From Escherichia coli (GTDB lineage Bacteria > Pseudomonadota > Gammaproteobacteria > Enterobacterales > Enterobacteriaceae), in the NCBI RefSeq assembly GCF_050920415.1, contig NZ_CP169309.1: a stretch of DNA of 64,000 bases; one strand, 5' to 3'. The notes below the pieces were generated by a model. That model worked only from the letters and a program-made list of their open reading frames with translations. It had not been told where the DNA came from and did not search any database. Positions 24,115 through 31,353 of the stretch are shown piece by piece. Numbering within the stretch: the first letter of the stretch is position 1; each line of letters begins with the position of its first letter. A program made the position numbers and the translations under genes.

Positions 24115-24964
24115 AAGCACGGTGTTCGGGGTTTTTTATGAGCAGCAAGCTTCATGGTCTTGTCTGGGAAGGGTGCGCCTTCACCGGCATGATCTTATCC
24201 AGGGTGGCAGTAATGGCTCGCCTTGCAGACTACAGCAATGACGAAGGTGTGTCATGGCCTGCAGTGGAGACCATTCGTCGTCAGATTGGGGCAAAGAGTG
24301 AATCAACGGTTAAAGCGGCGATAGCGGAACTGGAAAAGAACGGCTGGCTGACGAAGGAGGAGCGTAAGGTCGGTGGGCGTAATGAAAGCAATATCTACCG
24401 CCTTAATGTGGAAAAACTCGAAGCAGCAGCTGAGGCGGCGCGTGAGGCATATAAACCGAAAAGAAAAATTAGCCCGGCAAAAAATGACCCGTTAACAGTT
24501 GACCAGTCAAATATTGCCCCCTCAACGGTTGACCCGTCAAATTTTGATGGATCAACCGTTGGTAAAAAACAGCCGGTTAGGGGGGCGATGGTTGGCCCCG
24601 ATCCGTCAGTATTAAAACCTGATCCGTCAGATAAAAGATCTTTTCGTCCGGAAGCTTCGCAACCGGACCCGCAGACGGCTGAACAGGATTTTTTAACCCG
24701 ACATCCTGATGCGGTTGTGTTTAGTGCAAAAAAACGTCAGTGGGGAACTCAGGAGGATTTGGCATGCGCACAGTGGATCTGGGGGCGAATCGTGAGTCTT
24801 TACGAACAGGCCGCCAGCGATGATGGCGAGATCACCCGACCGAAAGAACCCAACTGGACAGCATGGGCCAATGACGTGCGCATAATGCGGATGCTGGATG
24901 GCAGAACTCACAGACAAATCTGTGAACCGCCCCGGGTTTCCTGGAGAGTGTTTTATCTGTGAAC

Positions 24965-25831
24965 TCAGGCTGCCAGATCATTGTTTCCGATGGAAGCATA
25001 ATAAGCTTTTTCTGCTTCTGCCGGAGGAGTATGGCCCAGCCTTCCCAGCAATCGTCGATTGTTATACCAGTCCACCCACGTGAGTGTGGCCAGTTCCACT
25101 TCTGCACGGTTTTTCCAGCTCTTACGGTGTATTACCTCCGCTTTGTAAAGACCATTGATGCTCTCAGCCATCGCGTTGTCATACGAGTCGCCTGTACTCC
25201 CTGTTGATGCCAGCAGTTTTGCTTCTTTTAGTCGCTCCGTATAGGCCAGTGACACATACTGAGAGCCTTTATCGCTGTGATGGATGGTGCCAGACGGACG
25301 ACGGGCCCACAACGCCTGCTCCAGCGCATCCAGCACGAATGTCGTTTCCATAGACGATGAGACCCGCCACCCCACGATGTATCCGGCAAACACATCAATG
25401 ATGAACGCCACATAGACGAAGCCCTGCCATGTGCTGACGTAAGTAAAATCAGCCACCCACAGCTGGTCAGGACGTTCTGCCACGAACTGACGGTTTACGC
25501 GGTCACCTGTGGCAACGGTTTTCCGGCTGACGGTAGTGCGGACCTTTTTACCCCGGAGAACACCGGCAAGTCCCATAACCGCCATGAGGCGCGCCACTGT
25601 ACATCTGGCCACCCTGATTCCTTCCCGTAACAACTGACGCCAGACTTTACGCACACCGTACACCTGATGATTTTCATCGTATACGCGCTGTATCTCTCTC
25701 TTCAGCCAGTCATCGCGCTGCGCACGGGCACTGCGTTTATCAGGATGATGCCGCTGCTGCTGACAATGGTAATACGTTGACGGGGCAATATGCAGTTCAC
25801 TGCATACCGGTCCGACCCCCGTACTGCTCAC
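24965..25831 (-). CDS. IS3-family transposase OrfB (DDE integrase domain)
   Basis: 288-aa ORF with DDE catalytic region; expressed as OrfAB by -1 frameshift. Confidence 0.85.
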   Translation of the reverse strand: MSSTGVGPVCSELHIAPSTYYHCQQQRHHPDKRSARAQRDDWLKREIQRVYDENHQVYGVRKVWRQLLREGIRVARCTVARLMAVMGLAGVLRGKKVRTTVSRKTVATGDRVNRQFVAERPDQLWVADFTYVSTWQGFVYVAFIIDVFAGYIVGWRVSSSMETTFVLDALEQALWARRPSGTIHHSDKGSQYVSLAYTERLKEAKLLASTGSTGDSYDNAMAESINGLYKAEVIHRKSWKNRAEVELATLTWVDWYNNRRLLGRLGHTPPAEAEKAYYASIGNNDLAA

Positions 25832-25852
25832 GCAGCTTATCCAGCAGTGGCA

Positions 25853-26179
25853 TTATTTTTTCCAGAGGCGGTCGAACTCCGCCTTCGCAAAATAAGCGGA
25901 AGCCTGGCGAAGGATATCGTTACTGCGGCGCAGTTCACGATTTTCACGTTCCAGCTCTTTCAGACGCTGACGTTCAGCGGTGGTGAGCCCACCATCACCG
26001 CTCCCGGTATCCCTCTCATGCTGGCGAACCCAGACACGCAGAGTCTCTGGCGTACAGCCAATCTTTGGAGCAATGGAACAAATTGCCGCCCATTGTGAGT
26101 CATATTCGCCCTGACTTTCCAGAACCATACGAACTGCGCGTTGACGGACTTCGGGGGAAAAACGAGTATTTTTAGTCAT
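25853..26179 (-). CDS. IS3-family transposase OrfA (HTH and leucine zipper)
   Basis: 108 aa, [19 protein letters not shown]...; recognised IS629-type OrfA. Confidence 0.85.
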
Positions 26180-26454
26180 CCTGTTTACCTCTTTCTCAGG
26201 AAGTTTAGTCTCCAGGATTTCCGGGGCGGTTCACTGCGAAATGTTTGGTCGGGTACAGCGGGATCCATTCTGGGTAAAAAACATCATGAGCCCGTCAAAA
26301 CTTCGCGATAAATGGGATGAGCTGGTTATCCGTCTGGGGCGTTCGCCTGTACAGCGTTGTGTGAATCATATTTCTGAACCTGACACCGAAATTCCACCAG
26401 GGTTCAGGGGGTAGGTATTGATTTCAGATCATGAGGTAATTTTCAGGAGGACTT

Positions 26455-26877
26455 GTGGCAAAAGTTTTTACACAAGAAGAGCGGGAAAAAATTAAGGGAC
26501 AGGTTGTTGCACTCGTACGCCAGAGTGGGCGCGAGACGTTACGACAGCTGGAAGCTAAAACAGGTGCGACAAGATATCTGATTAGCGTTCTTGCCTGGGA
26601 GCTGGTTGCCAGTGGCGATGTATACAACTCTGGCTATGGGTTATTCCCGTCAGAACAGGCTCGTAAGGACTGGCAAAACGCCCGCAAAAAACTATCGAGG
26701 GCAAAGGGGAAGAAACCGTCTATGGTTGATCCGGACCTTATCTGGTCATTACCTGACGGAGAAATTCGTCGCTACGATAGTCGCCATAACATGGTTTGTC
26801 GCGAGTGTCTGGAAAGTGAAGTAATGCAGCGAGTGTTGGCATTTTATCAGGGAAATGTTCGCTATTTATTGAAGTGA
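26455..26877 (+). CDS. hypothetical protein, possible DNA-binding regulator
   Basis: 140-aa ORF, GTG start with AGGAGG RBS; sits where a helicase loader would be in lambda. Confidence 0.45.
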   Translation: MAKVFTQEEREKIKGQVVALVRQSGRETLRQLEAKTGATRYLISVLAWELVASGDVYNSGYGLFPSEQARKDWQNARKKLSRAKGKKPSMVDPDLIWSLPDGEIRRYDSRHNMVCRECLESEVMQRVLAFYQGNVRYLLK

Positions 26878-27341
26878 CGAGATTAAAGAGCATTAATACA
26901 TATGTGAATTGACATTTCTGTGGCACAGGGCTAGAACTATTCTCATTGTCAGCGTTGTGCCAGAGTCTGATGTTTGTTGTACATTTGGACGAATAGACGG
27001 CGTTGTTAACTTTAAAAATAACACAGGAACACTTTGAGAAAGTGAACAGGCGTATTTATTTTTTGCTGATGAAGGAGAGTAACTTTAATTTGGGTAATTA
27101 GATTGATAATAGGCCAGACGAAAATAACATTCTGGCACACTTTTGGTCGCTACAGTCATTAGTTAATTTTAAGTGATAAATTTTTATCCATAAGTTAACA
27201 CTAGTGTGTCATCTAGCGAAACCGAATCGCTTTAATCCATAACTTAAAGTTGAATCAGTGGGGTAGCAGTAGGTATGCCGGAACTGATAAACTGTGCAGA
27301 AGGCTAAACATTCATTCACTCGTGAGATAGTAGCATAAATT

Positions 27342-27686
27342 ATGCAAAGAATTATTCCTGATAAAAATTGGTGGGAAAAAGAGCGTATTAATCGTAAAGC
27401 ATCATCAAAATGCCCATATGCTAGTTCATACAGATGTCCTCGGTACTATCAGAGTGTAGTTTTGCTCTCAAGCATCAATATGATAGCTGGTATGGCAACT
27501 AGGAAAGAAAAAGAGTTGGGCGAATTTGGGGAAAGAACTAGTTTCTCATATTTATGTGATGAAGAAGTCCCAACAGTTACTACAAAAGAATATGGCGGCC
27601 TTGCATCAGTTAGTAATTTTTGCCCAGAAATATCATTTAGATATTTACACTATTACGCCGATTATATGTGTAAATATGTTGATTAG
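27342..27686 (+). CDS. hypothetical Cys-containing protein (low-GC cassette A, gene 1)
   Basis: 114-aa ORF in markedly AT-rich DNA after a 460-bp AT-rich non-coding leader; Cys pairs CPY...CPRY. Confidence 0.4.
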   Translation: MQRIIPDKNWWEKERINRKASSKCPYASSYRCPRYYQSVVLLSSINMIAGMATRKEKELGEFGERTSFSYLCDEEVPTVTTKEYGGLASVSNFCPEISFRYLHYYADYMCKYVD

Positions 27687-27755
27687 ATAGATCAGGATAC
27701 TGGCAGGCGTAGTGCGGAAAAAGATAATTTAGAAAATGATTGGAAATATACATGG

Positions 27756-28208
27756 ATGTCAGTCAATCCTAAATTTTATTTAGATTGCGATGTTTTTGAA
27801 AGTGTCAAAAACTTCAATGAAGAATTGGCTAGTGATTACTTAAAGAGATTGCATCCAAATATCATTCAGCAAATAGATAGAATGAATAATTGCTTGGATA
27901 ATAATGACCCTGCGGGTGCACTGCACGCAGCCTCTAATATTCTAGAAACTATGGCGAAGGAAATCACTCAAAACCCGAATGTGGCAAATGAGTCATTGGG
28001 TGGTTTTTTTAAACAGTTCGAAAAAATGTCAAAATTACCTAAGAATCTTATTGATATTGTTAAAGATATTTATGATTTACGCAACAAACTACCTACTGCT
28101 GGACACGGAAGCTTGAACAGGCCTGAATTAACTATGGTAGAAGCTATAACTATTGCGGCAATGACAAAGGCGATTTTAGAAATTGAATATCGAAGCAAAG
28201 CCATCTAA
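27756..28208 (+). CDS. hypothetical protein (low-GC cassette A, gene 2); C-terminal R-N-x5-G-H-G segment possibly HEPN/Abi-like
   Basis: 150-aa ORF; predicted mostly helical; DLRNKLPTAGHGSLNRPE near C-terminus; no confident family assignment. Confidence 0.45.
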   Translation: MSVNPKFYLDCDVFESVKNFNEELASDYLKRLHPNIIQQIDRMNNCLDNNDPAGALHAASNILETMAKEITQNPNVANESLGGFFKQFEKMSKLPKNLIDIVKDIYDLRNKLPTAGHGSLNRPELTMVEAITIAAMTKAILEIEYRSKAI

Positions 28209-28705
28209 CAAACATAAATTATGTGGTTCAAATTCCCGCTATACTTCTGTGTTATTGCCGCCAGCGTCTACTTATCGCTGTGAGTTCAACGGGGCGATGA
28301 TGCGTTAGAGATCTCTGAATCGATTGAAGTCTAAGGTTGTCAGGGCTGTAACAGTAGCCCTGTGTCATGAAAGGATTGCATATTAATTAACGAAGAACAG
28401 ACCAATAGCATTGATAGTTGTTTTCAAAAATAGACCAATAACAAACACGACTGGCCATCTCATCGATTTTCGACAGTATGCAGAAATGGGCGGGATCCAC
28501 ACGCAGTACCAGCTTGCTAAGATAAACGAAAAGGAGACTTTAACCAGTCAGTGGCTGCATGCTGATGGTGATCCGCTATGGGCCGTAGATGTTGTTTGAT
28601 GTACGCAGAAAGAGACGACGAAGGGCACTATGCCGAAAACTAAATCGGTTTTAGAGATTAACCGCGCTGGTGAGCTGGAGTGATTGACTTTTAGAACGCC
28701 AGAAA

Positions 28706-28746: not shown

Positions 28747-29379
28747 CTATTTTTTGGCAATTAGTGCATGCATCGCCATTTCATGACCTTTTCTGCGAAG
28801 TTTTTTCACACGGGGCTTGAGCCTAGTGAAAGAACTTGGGCTAATTGTCGACTCAGCTTCAACTATATCATTGCGGGGAGCACCCGTTTTAGCATCTTCA
28901 TAGCGGATAAGTATTTTAAACGTGCCCTCATCAACTCCGACACCTTGCAAGTGATGAAGTTTAGATGAAACAGCACCGATTAAATAATCATGAATTCCTT
29001 GCAGGCCCGTTTTACCGATTGGTGAATAGGTATGCAACATATTTGCACCTACAGGAAGGAACTGGCGAAAGTCAGGAACATGCATCTTGTTAACTTCAAC
29101 AGAAGTGTATGCTTTCATGTCAAAAGAAACTCCAGGTTTCCGTGCATTGACTTCTAGCCATTGAGGCAAATCGAGAATATATTTGCTCTCAGCAGTTACT
29201 TCCAGTTTCTTCCTAGACGATAATGTCACGTCCATTACCTGAGCCATATCAGCCATAGAAAGCTCAGCGGCCTTCCGGTTGATGGCTTGTACCCGCTCGC
29301 TCACGTTAGGTCCGAATGCATCGAACAACGAAATTTCAGCAGCTGGTTTAATGGCTTCAGTTTTAACAGACATATACAC
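28747..29379 (-). CDS. hypothetical protein, partner of zeta-like kinase (cassette B, gene 2)
   Basis: 210-aa ORF about 19 nt downstream of the kinase gene on the same strand; no recognisable motif. Confidence 0.5.
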   Translation of the reverse strand: MYMSVKTEAIKPAAEISLFDAFGPNVSERVQAINRKAAELSMADMAQVMDVTLSSRKKLEVTAESKYILDLPQWLEVNARKPGVSFDMKAYTSVEVNKMHVPDFRQFLPVGANMLHTYSPIGKTGLQGIHDYLIGAVSSKLHHLQGVGVDEGTFKILIRYEDAKTGAPRNDIVEAESTISPSSFTRLKPRVKKLRRKGHEMAMHALIAKK

Positions 29380-29398
29380 TCCTTAGATAGGACACTTA

Positions 29399-30097
29399 TT
29401 ATACACCTAAATGCGCTAGATCGCTAACGTCTGAATATGGGCAGCTATGGGAGGTAGTCCAGTTTTCAAGGGTCACGTTAGGAGTATAGTCGACCACGAA
29501 CTGACCATCATTTTCAGGATCTTCCCGTCGATGATAAACATTGAGTGTAAATAGGCCTGCATATTTCGCGAGCATATGTTCAATGGTCTCTCTGCTCTTG
29601 AAAAAGTTCGCTTTAAGAACCTCTAACGGAACCTTACGAGAGCGGGCTTGGGCAAAAACCCACGCGTAAGCCGGATCAAAATAGACGTAATTCAGTGCTA
29701 CCTGATAACCAGCCTTCAGGGCCAGATCAAAGTTTCTCTCCGCAATACCTATACTGGAGAAAGTAGAGTCCATAACAATGGGATAGCCTTCAGATAGCGC
29801 TTTTTTGTAGATAAAATCGACCATTCTGGAGGCAGGTCTCTGATAGTCCACAGAGTTCTCTTCATTGTAGTAGGGGAACCACCAGCGAAAATCATCAGCA
29901 TCAATTCGAACAATGTTTGTGATGCCATGTTGTTCTAAAAGACGATTTAAGAGCTCGGTTTTACCTGCAGCAGGCGAACCAGCCATAAACAGGACGTGCT
30001 TGGCATTGGCATTTTTGTTTGCTGTTACGTAACTATAAACGTAAGGGCGAATTGCCTCACCAAACTCAGGCAGTATGGTTTCAAGTTCTTTTTTCAT
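29399..30097 (-). CDS. zeta-toxin-like P-loop kinase (cassette B, gene 1)
   Basis: 232-aa ORF; Walker A FMAGSPAAGKTEL followed about 20 residues later by RIDADDFR, the arrangement seen in zeta/PezT/AvrRxo1-type kinases; low-GC context. Confidence 0.6.
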   Translation of the reverse strand: MKKELETILPEFGEAIRPYVYSYVTANKNANAKHVLFMAGSPAAGKTELLNRLLEQHGITNIVRIDADDFRWWFPYYNEENSVDYQRPASRMVDFIYKKALSEGYPIVMDSTFSSIGIAERNFDLALKAGYQVALNYVYFDPAYAWVFAQARSRKVPLEVLKANFFKSRETIEHMLAKYAGLFTLNVYHRREDPENDGQFVVDYTPNVTLENWTTSHSCPYSDVSDLAHLGV

Positions 30098-30261
30098 CGG
30101 TAAATCATGCCGTGGTAGTTTTAGTTTTATTTAACAATATCATAAACGTTTAAAGATGGTTACAAATTAGCTAGATTTGTGAGCGCTTTAACCTCTAAAA
30201 CCCTCTGGAACCCAATACCGCTTTTCTGGCTGTCTTTTCAATACGGCATCCAGCGCATCAC

Positions 30262-30600
30262 TTACTCGGTCTGTATGCGGTTCATTGCTGAAGTCGCCAG
30301 TTGCGGGTAAATCTGCATCTCTGCGCCGTTTAAGATTCGCGTATTTACGCGCAAGCGCTCGATGGCTTCATTTTGCTGGTGGCTTTCCTTCCTCGCGGCT
30401 ATTCTAGCTATCTGATTGGCTGCTATGGCCTTTGCCGCTGTCATGGAATGCGCCAGAGTCTTATCCGTCATCATTACACGCTGCGTTTCCAGCATGCTGG
30501 AATGATCTCTTTTTGTTGTTCTTGAAGAAGAACTCTTATTCTTCGGTATATCATTTTGACAGGGGGCAGTGTAAGTATCCCTGCAAAACGAACCATTCAC
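30262..30600 (-). CDS. hypothetical protein (weak call)
   Basis: 112-aa ORF; the C-terminal 70 aa look protein-like, the N-terminal part may be spurious. Confidence 0.3.
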   Translation of the reverse strand: MNGSFCRDTYTAPCQNDIPKNKSSSSRTTKRDHSSMLETQRVMMTDKTLAHSMTAAKAIAANQIARIAARKESHQQNEAIERLRVNTRILNGAEMQIYPQLATSAMNRIQTE

Positions 30601-30907: not shown

Positions 30908-31122
30908 TTGATTTTATATTGGCGAGGTGACGGGAGTTAAGTAGGATTGCTGCGGGTGCTTGAGGCTATCTGTCTCAGGCATGAATACCAACGGCAGATA
31001 GAGAAAAGCCCCAGTTAACATTACGCGTCCTGCAAGACGCCTAACATTAATCTGAGGCCATATCTATGACTTGCACACGTAGGTTAGCCTCTTACGTGCC
31101 GAAAGGCAAGGAGAAGCAGGCT

Positions 31123-31353
31123 ATGAAGCAGCATAAGGCGATGTTAATCGCCCTGATTGTCATCTGTTTAACTGTCATTGTGACGGCACTGGTAACGAGG
31201 AAAGATCTCTGTGAGGTACGAATCCGAACCAGCCAAACGGAGGTCGCTGTCTTCACAGCTTACGAACCTGAGGAGTTAGAGACCAGGCGAGGGAGAAATC
31301 CCTCGCCACCTCTGATGAGTCAGGCATCCTCAATGCACCCACACTTAACTTGA
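31123..31353 (+). CDS. hokD: Hok/Gef-family type I toxin (HokD/RelF-like) with C-terminal extension
   Basis: MKQHKAMLIALIVICLTVIVTALVTRKDLCEVRIRTSQTEVAVFTAYEPEE matches the Hok family; the expected stop after EPEE is TTA here and the ORF continues 25 codons; GC-rich hairpin GGCGAGGGAGAAATCCCTCGCC within the extension; in frame with an upstream mok-like ORF from 31066. Confidence 0.8.
   Translation: MKQHKAMLIALIVICLTVIVTALVTRKDLCEVRIRTSQTEVAVFTAYEPEELETRRGRNPSPPLMSQASSMHPHLT

Follow-up and report, generated by a model that had tools for sequence, protein, structure and literature searches.

The described systems closest to the locus studied here are AbiJ, Taranis and HepS. AbiJ (Abi-859) of Lactococcus lactis is a single polypeptide of ~280-290 aa in which a variable N-terminal domain precedes a C-terminal HEPN domain (PMC3710099). 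In the AbiJ-NTD architecture a constant front module is combined with interchangeable toxic effectors, and the HEPN motifs comprise R-x4-6-H, with a polar residue following the Arg, and an upstream E-x3-[KR] (PMC3710099). Taranis, from an integron cassette of Vibrio cholerae, is a validated single-gene anti-phage protein (bioRxiv 10.1101/2024.07.02.601686). It has an Abi_C-type C-terminus and a swappable N-terminus reported as AbiJ_NTD5-like, and is found near integrases in Enterobacteria. HepS of the Salmonella prophage Gifsy-1 (PDB 9oik) is a single-domain HEPN tetramer that cleaves the anticodon loops of tRNA once the tail-tip protein J has activated it (PMC13043305).

Within a 64-kb stretch of Escherichia coli DNA (64,000 nucleotides, hereafter the window), we identified a locus that we consider rather likely to be an AbiJ-type sensor-HEPN abortive-infection gene on a mobile cassette, 288 aa in its intact form and inactivated here by an amber codon. 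The family of intact homologues shares with AbiJ its length and its two-part layout. Its matches to PADLOC AbiJ and Pfam Abi_C align collinearly at the C-terminus, and its N-terminal domain, like the AbiJ-NTDs, is fused elsewhere to TIR, REase, PLD and kinase domains. However, these matches are sub-threshold (AbiJ E 0.012; Abi_C 1.6e-4 to 3e-3), seven residues rather than four to six separate the Arg and His, and the N-terminal domain has four conserved Cys and matches none of AbiJ_NTD3/4/5. The putative Abi_C-type C-terminus, the swappable N-terminus and the vicinity of integrases also recall Taranis as described, but the N-terminal domain of the family has no AbiJ_NTD3/4/5 match. The family also resembles HepS, but has a separate Cys-rich domain of 167 aa, and the window copy is broken. 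The best PADLOC match to the intact protein is PDC-S32, whose 285-position profile is C-terminally collinear with it (201-268 vs 199-263), although the HEPN part alone matches, at E = 0.0083, and PDC-S32 is itself just a candidate. We found no paper that names these 288-aa proteins.

The first-pass annotation of the window described two genes at this locus. Both plus-strand ORFs are present, but they are parts of one coding sequence:

27342..28208, plus strand: interrupted 288-codon gene for a putative sensor-HEPN protein, a continuous frame with one internal amber codon; relatives have a single 867-bp CDS
27342..27686, plus strand: ORF1, 114 aa, the N-terminal domain up to two thirds of its length
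27756..28208, plus strand: ORF2, 150 aa, starting at Met139, which takes in the whole HEPN domain and, ahead of it, the final ~30 residues of the N-terminal domain
27684..27686, plus strand: amber stop, TAG for GAG at codon 115 (E115*), which interrupts the N-terminal domain at its conserved D-E-I-D motif

The two ORFs lie in the same frame, the TAG at 27684-27686 is the only stop between them, and their orthologues are single CDSs, so they are not the independent coding sequences of a two-gene operon. A megablast search of 5,426 complete E. coli genomes returned 17 records spanning most of the region. Seven of these, 99.4-100% identical, come from the same lambdoid prophage, where the annotation shows two hypothetical proteins. 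The other ten, at ~95.6-95.9% identity, belong to P2-like prophages and have a single CDS of 867 bp, the exact length of 27342-28208. The single CDS was seen at loci L002, L003, L005, L006, L007, L020 and L024-27, and accessions of single-CDS relatives include WP_016569949.1, WP_032317446.1 and WP_096835767.1. Where the relatives read KYVD-E-IDQD in translation, the window reads KYVD-*-IDQD. A more distant copy in strain NCTC9064 (80% identity) is also one 288-aa CDS, and a protein search recovered 40 homologous clusters from Enterobacterales, Vibrio, Shewanella, Vreelandella and Pseudomonas, nearly all ~288 aa in length and all named "hypothetical". The region 27342-28208 is one gene cut by an in-frame amber codon, not two. 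This corrects the annotation of hundreds of E. coli genomes, in which two "hypothetical proteins" are one broken gene.

The C-terminal part of the protein comprises the following features:

27855..28196, plus strand: HEPN-fold domain, codons 172-285
27945..27959, plus strand: E202-T-M-A-K206, the E-x3-[KR] motif, conserved in all HEPN-bearing members
28080..28106, plus strand: R247-N-K-L-P-T-A-G-H255, putative catalytic Arg/His pair with seven residues between, both present in every HEPN-bearing member

The predicted model shows the up-down bundle of four to five helices that is typical of HEPN domains, and the loop with H255 is its least confident part (pLDDT <50). The segment DLRNKLPTAGHGSLNRPE, from which a HEPN/Abi-like protein with an R-N-x5-G-H-G motif had been proposed, occurs at 28074-28127 exactly as claimed. 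The Arg-His spacing, on which that proposal was tentative, is seven here vs the published four to six. The sequence RNxxPTAGHG recurs in a protein from a Rhodococcus plasmid whose N-terminus is unrelated, and this equal spacing indicates a trait of the family rather than an accident. E202-x3-K206 and R247-N-x6-H255 would form a putative metal-independent RNase site.

Profile matches place the domain less firmly. Pfam Abi_C (PF14355) matched the 150-aa ORF at E 1.6e-4 and the intact protein at 3.2e-3. Among 28 full-length members, 8 matched at E<=0.1 and none at <=0.001. Since Abi_C scores weaken on the intact proteins, sequence-level membership of that family is marginal, and precomputed annotation tables list PF14355 as "faint" for family members. 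The 150-aa ORF had further weak matches to other HEPN families, namely PADLOC AbiJ (0.012), PADLOC Cas13a (0.014) and NCBIfam Csm6 (0.0085). None of the validated defence models in PADLOC was matched significantly, PDC-S32 and AbiJ being the best. A search with the C-terminal domain alone gave 3 matches only, and NCBI names one C-terminal fragment "abortive infection family protein". The HEPN/Abi-like assignment is partly supported by the invariant Arg and His of HEPN-bearing members and by the HEPN-type matches, and weakened by the marginal profile scores and the spacing of seven.

The N-terminal part is distinguished by its Cys residues:

27342..27842, plus strand: Cys-rich alpha/beta domain at the N-terminus (codons 1-167), putatively a sensor/regulatory module, cut by the stop
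27411..27437, plus strand: C24 (27411-27413) and C32 (27435-27437) in the motif C-P-Y-A-x4-C-P-R-Y, invariant in alignments A1, A2 and A3 (A3 being the wide alignment of 84 sequences)
27621..27623, plus strand: C94 in the motif N-F-C-P-E, invariant
27786..27788, plus strand: C149 (in D-C), an N-terminal-domain residue although it lies in ORF2, invariant in A1/A2 and conserved in at least 90% of A3

Paired Cys motifs had been noted in the 114-aa ORF. The Cys are present there, but they are part of a set of four that ends in the 150-aa ORF, and the position of C149 points independently to one domain that the stop interrupts. Further invariant residues of the domain are W10, R34 and W63, together with the D-E-I-D motif. 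The 114-aa ORF had no match in Pfam, PADLOC or NCBIfam. None of 20 members tested had a Pfam match for this domain, AbiJ_NTD3/4/5 included, and the same held for it in 84 wider homologues. The full-length family profile (A1) matched no PDB sequence even at E<=10, the domain matched no PDB fold, and in AFDB50 it retrieved its own family only.

When 1.84 billion representative proteins were searched with a profile of the N-terminal domain, 479 clusters were returned, of which 395 reached E<=1e-10. In these clusters the domain is nearly always N-terminal, in proteins of 154 to 819 aa. A Pfam census of the partner domains in 84 of the longer homologues identified TIR_2 (19 members), TIR (11), CAP12/Pycsar-type TIR (5), DpnII/MboI REase (3), PLD (2), HTH_17 (2), and one member each with SEFIR, Schlafen AlbA_2, a protein kinase and GGDEF. 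At least 19 of the 84 thus have a TIR partner. HNH fusions occur additionally in AFDB. PADLOC models match just the effector parts of these proteins. By analogy with the AbiJ-NTDs, which likewise precede swappable effectors, the domain is probably a sensor or regulator, and C24, C32, C94 and C149 may hold a metal. As an undescribed four-Cys domain of ~165 aa that precedes TIR, HEPN, HNH, REase or PLD in ~480 clusters, it is a candidate new sensor module for immune systems made of one protein, and one on which a search for triggers could focus directly.

If the intact protein worked as characterised HEPN Abi proteins do, its N-terminal domain would sense a phage-derived cue, the HEPN active site would then be released or assembled, and cleavage of tRNA, rRNA or mRNA would arrest the infected cell.

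The gene is carried by a mobile cassette:

26955..28446, plus strand: AT-rich mobile cassette of 1,492 bp, made up of leader (387 bp), gene (867 bp) and 3' flank (238 bp)

At a GC content of 0.361 the cassette is the lowest 1492-bp window of the 64 kb (0 of 626 others are as AT-rich). The AT-richness reported in the first-pass annotation was reproduced in a GC profile, with 0.35-0.36 in the leader and gene vs 0.46 in the prophage and 0.505 in the window. The cassette lies in the cargo slot between DUF977 and hokD of a Rac-like lambdoid prophage, whose gene order is int, xis, exonuclease, dicB, repressor, cro, ydaT, replication gene, DUF977, cassette, zeta-toxin operon, hok/sok, RusA and Q. The Ren-like/DUF977 protein encoded upstream matches PHROG 142 (E 7e-43). 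In ~4,000 other E. coli DUF977 loci, homology to the window ends at 26939-26953, just before the left end of the cassette. Related prophages have an AAA ATPase, or a DUF262 protein and a TPR protein, in the same slot, and this varied cargo supports the reading of a moron in a variable slot. We detected no E. coli genome in which the two flanks are directly joined, which indicates that cargo of one kind or another always occupies the slot.

The cassette itself was found in several unrelated elements. Its identity to P2-like prophage hotspots (L002, L005, L006 and L032) is ~95.2-95.9% (~95.7% over the shared 1,492 bp) with sharp ends, and homology to a Salmonella islet (L020) begins at 26969. 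The Salmonella copy resides in a common chromosomal islet, beside tacAT and glyQS. Intact copies of the P2 type were also identified on gut metagenome contigs, and a further copy of the gene is on P1-like IncY plasmids. Sequenced phage genomes gave no match by megablast or tblastn. The earlier suggestion that the DNA is a horizontally acquired moron is borne out by the deviant GC, the sharp ends, the presence of the cassette in P2-like hotspots and the Salmonella islet, and the different cargo that related lambdoid prophages hold at the slot. We suggest that the cassette has moved among the P2-like defence hotspot, the Salmonella islet and the lambdoid slot between DUF977 and hokD.

In the P2-like prophages the gene is placed between a DinI-like gene and the portal gene. 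This DinI-to-portal region of P2 is an experimentally validated defence hotspot (PMC9122126), and the neighbours identified there include an AAA-ATPase with HNH (Septu-like), OLD-like, KAP-type NTPase and Vpar_1526 cargo. Elsewhere, the intact homologue of NCTC9064 lies between a DUF4297 gene with an ATPase and a helicase/nuclease pair, that of Pectobacterium is in an integrase-bounded island, and that of Shewanella adjoins a resolvase. The genes on either side change from one context to the next and share no homology, so it is a single-gene unit. Convergent ORFs of ~210-217 aa beside the gene in three contexts were considered as a conserved partner and rejected, as they are mutually unrelated.

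A defence role for the intact family is suggested by the P2 hotspot, the defence-gene and integrase neighbourhoods, the IncY plasmid, the fusions to immune effectors, the single-gene organisation and the cargo position in the lambdoid slot. A probable role can thereby be given to the unnamed family of 288-aa proteins in P2 hotspots, P1-like plasmids and Salmonella. Alternatively, the intact protein may not act against phage at all. It could instead be a toxin, serving selfish addiction or a stress response, or a factor in RNA processing, and simply be carried along in the variable parts of mobile elements. The lack of a match to any validated defence model agrees with this, as do the position of the Salmonella copy, which adjoins the tacAT toxin-antitoxin module and not a classic defence island, and the lack of any paper that we could find naming these proteins. 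We regard it as quite improbable, given the repeated placement in a validated hotspot (PMC9122126), the fusion of the N-terminal domain to TIR, SEFIR, REase, PLD and HNH, which are usual immune effectors, and the lack of an adjacent antitoxin gene or RNA repeat array.

The stop codon separates the lambdoid copies from all others that were compared. All 8 lambdoid copies (the window and 7 others, the latter from strains isolated in seven countries) have TAG at codon 115, which is GAG or GAA in all P2, island, Pectobacterium and metagenomic copies examined, and an Ala codon (GCx) in Salmonella. TAG was found in 0 of the non-lambdoid copies checked. In the family alignment at least 90% of the sequences have E115, and D114 and D117 never vary; the Ala of the Salmonella copies indicates that E115 itself is not indispensable. 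A scan of metagenomes for further copies of the TAG clade gave 3 matches only, all of them intact P2-type alleles. In total, the 150-aa product is encoded on at least 700 contigs (613 + 90), one variant alone on 613; for comparison, intact alleles occur on ~420 E. coli and ~460 Salmonella contigs.

The window copy has a second change at a conserved position:

27528..27530, plus strand: GGG (Gly) in place of a Trp that is invariant in alignments A1/A2 (W63G)

This substitution is limited to the window and two other loci (L001 and L017), and the remaining copies of the TAG clade retain TGG. The clade has 7 polymorphic sites, of which 5 are nonsynonymous (E12K, R34Q, W63G, R123L and V239I) and 2 synonymous, and both R34 and W63, invariant in the family, are altered within it. 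A crude dN/dS is ~0.6 in the TAG clade vs ~0.16 within the P2 clade and ~0.14 between the clades, a contrast that is not significant because there are so few sites (Fisher p = 0.19). No second disruption was seen among the 8 copies, and with only seven substitutions none would be expected. The prophage also has an IS3-family element at 24927-26233, inside its replication gene, which indicates that it is decaying; L001 lacks the IS.

As E115* splits the putative sensor domain, the window copy is most likely a non-functional remnant, a pseudogene of the lambdoid lineage with its GAG-to-TAG change at codon 115, and it has W63G as well. The window element as a whole is most likely inert. We consider loss of function likely, and the remaining weight is shared between a functional split and a leaky stop. 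Residual function is conceivable since the allele is common, otherwise undisrupted, and keeps all the residues of the HEPN catalytic motifs.

In the first case, the 114-aa and 150-aa fragments would be made separately and reassemble, or act as an antitoxin/toxin pair, in a two-component version of the system that comes close to the two genes of the first-pass annotation. Such a split would fit the spread of the allele through strains from seven countries, two pieces that stay open with no further stops or frameshifts, intact HEPN motifs, and a 150-aa product so uniform that a single variant accounts for most contigs. But the stop interrupts a compact domain within its most conserved motif and parts C24, C32 and C94 from C149, and no other split pair was seen among the 40 clusters or in the ~480-cluster family of the N-terminal domain. 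Translation of the second piece would have to begin at Met139, the first possible start past the stop, after a gap of 69 nt with no start codon, and the Shine-Dalgarno scores of ORF1 and ORF2 are both at background level. Invariant R34 and W63 are mutated in some copies, and the missing second disruption is expected by chance from only 7 substitutions in the clade. Taken with these points, a functional split is improbable.

In the second case, low readthrough of the TAG would yield a little full-length protein, making the allele an attenuated but active form of a potentially toxic Abi gene. Over-active HEPN Abi proteins are toxic (PMC3710099, PMC13043305). The downstream frame is also kept in 8 of 8 copies. 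On the other side, UAG is naturally read through at a low rate in E. coli, the 64-kb window contains no suppressor tRNA gene, and W63G and R34Q strike invariant positions upstream of the stop, so that we consider a leaky amber very unlikely.

Inactivation of the gene remains our preferred reading, and the amber may even have been selected rather than arisen by random decay. The gene would then be an anti-lambdoid weapon of P2-type phages, disarmed after capture, and its N-terminal domain a new and widespread immune sensor module, possibly metal- or redox-dependent through its four Cys, that couples to interchangeable effectors (HEPN, TIR, HNH, REase, PLD). The sensor would recognise a component of lambdoid phages, so that a prophage with an active copy would be killed by it when induced. 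The amber is absent from the P2, P1-plasmid and island copies. We regard this reading as unlikely. The lambdoid-only stop codon offers a simple test of how prophages handle captured, potentially self-targeting defence genes, and it is this stop and the unnamed Cys-rich domain, rather than the window copy, that are of main interest.

The gene is preceded by a non-coding leader, part of which belongs to the cassette:

26878..27341, plus strand: AT-rich non-coding leader of 464 bp, of which the part from 26955 travels with the gene

The ~460-bp AT-rich leader of the first-pass annotation corresponds to this 464-bp gap (GC 0.364), which follows the Ren-like/DUF977 gene ending at 26877. A type III antitoxin RNA has been reported for AbiV and AbiF (PMC13064643). 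In the leader we detected no ORFs above chance, no tandem repeats (TRF), no stable RNA structure (fold z = -0.35) and no Rfam match, the only Rfam matches in the window being an IS3 frameshift pseudoknot and sok, both outside the cassette. A promoter and terminator scan gave nothing beyond chance level, promoter-like sites in the leader included. With no repeats, stable fold, Rfam match or promoter excess, the leader does not support a type III antitoxin RNA. A toxin-antitoxin module of type II or III, as for AbiV, AbiF or HEPN-MNT, was rejected, there being no conserved antitoxin neighbour and neither tandem repeats nor stable structure in the leader. Separately, the leader contains a 17-nt direct repeat in two copies, at 27182-27198 and 27231-27247.

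The Salmonella enterica allele of the gene (loci L020-L023) is very common, appearing in 827 blocks of the collection index. Codon 115, a TAG in the window, specifies Ala in this allele, and Glu is near-invariant at this position in the family. The Salmonella gene lies between a tacA/acetyltransferase toxin-antitoxin pair and glyQS. Because the right flank of the locus runs on into P2-hotspot sequence, its sequence suggests that the locus is a P2-derived remnant. At the hotspots of the P2-like prophages (L002, L005 and L024-L027), the intact gene is nearly always followed by the same convergent gene, which encodes a 217-aa hypothetical protein, and the cargo past this gene is variable (AAA+HNH, OLD-like, Vpar_1526 and others).

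The Pseudomonas relatives (proteins P0034-P0038 of loci L009-L011) have kept the Cys-rich N-domain, and their HEPN domain is replaced by a C-terminal region of ~130 aa that is unrelated to HEPN and has no Pfam match. These loci adjoin genes for an SMC-like AAA_23 ATPase and a trypsin-like protease.

Within the AT-rich cassette that carries the gene in the window, we noted repeated sequence in the leader and a distinct stretch in the 3′ flank:
27182-27198 and 27231-27247, two copies of a 17-nt direct repeat (TTTTATCCATAAGTTAA and TTTAATCCATAACTTAA), 49 bp apart
28295-28375, 81-bp stretch containing the hairpin CAGGGCT-N8-AGCCCTG

The direct repeat overlaps an imperfect inverted repeat; it may serve as a site where a regulator binds, or may have arisen by chance. 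The 81-bp stretch has a 91.5% match in ~600 E. coli genomes to the last ~40 bp of a gene for a 200-aa “site-specific integrase” and the spacer downstream of it. The next gene in those genomes encodes a protein of DUF4145, another HEPN family, and the stretch was probably left over from a previous context for HEPN cargo.

Convergent with the cassette is a three-gene unit that was found only in the seven genomes sharing the lambdoid prophage of the window:
28747-30495 (-), zeta-toxin unit
30262-30495 (-), 77-aa ORF
29399-30097 (-), 232-aa zeta-toxin/PezT-like kinase (NCBIfam PezT, E 3.4e-10)
28747-29379 (-), 210-aa protein without a family match
28734-28709, terminator-like hairpin by the unit

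This unit possibly represents a second moron, of the toxin-antitoxin or defence kind. Its 210-aa protein showed no relation to the 217-aa protein of the P2-like hotspots.

A hok/sok locus was also identified, with a Hok-like ORF that extends to 95 aa:
30954-31353, hok/sok locus (Rfam sok RNA and Hok-like ORF)
30954-31128, sok antitoxin RNA (Rfam, 108 bits)

The identical copy of this ORF in the near-identical prophage of NZ_CP169399 (L001) is labelled by PGAP as an incomplete Hok/Gef pseudogene.

The helix-turn-helix/replication gene of the prophage is interrupted by an insertion sequence:
24927-26233 (-), IS3-family element with orfA, orfB and an Rfam pseudoknot
25853-26179 (-), orfA
24965-25831 (-), orfB
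25781-25898 (-), ALIL frameshift pseudoknot (Rfam match)

This element is absent from the NZ_CP169399 prophage, which is elsewhere 99.98-99.99% identical to that of the window.
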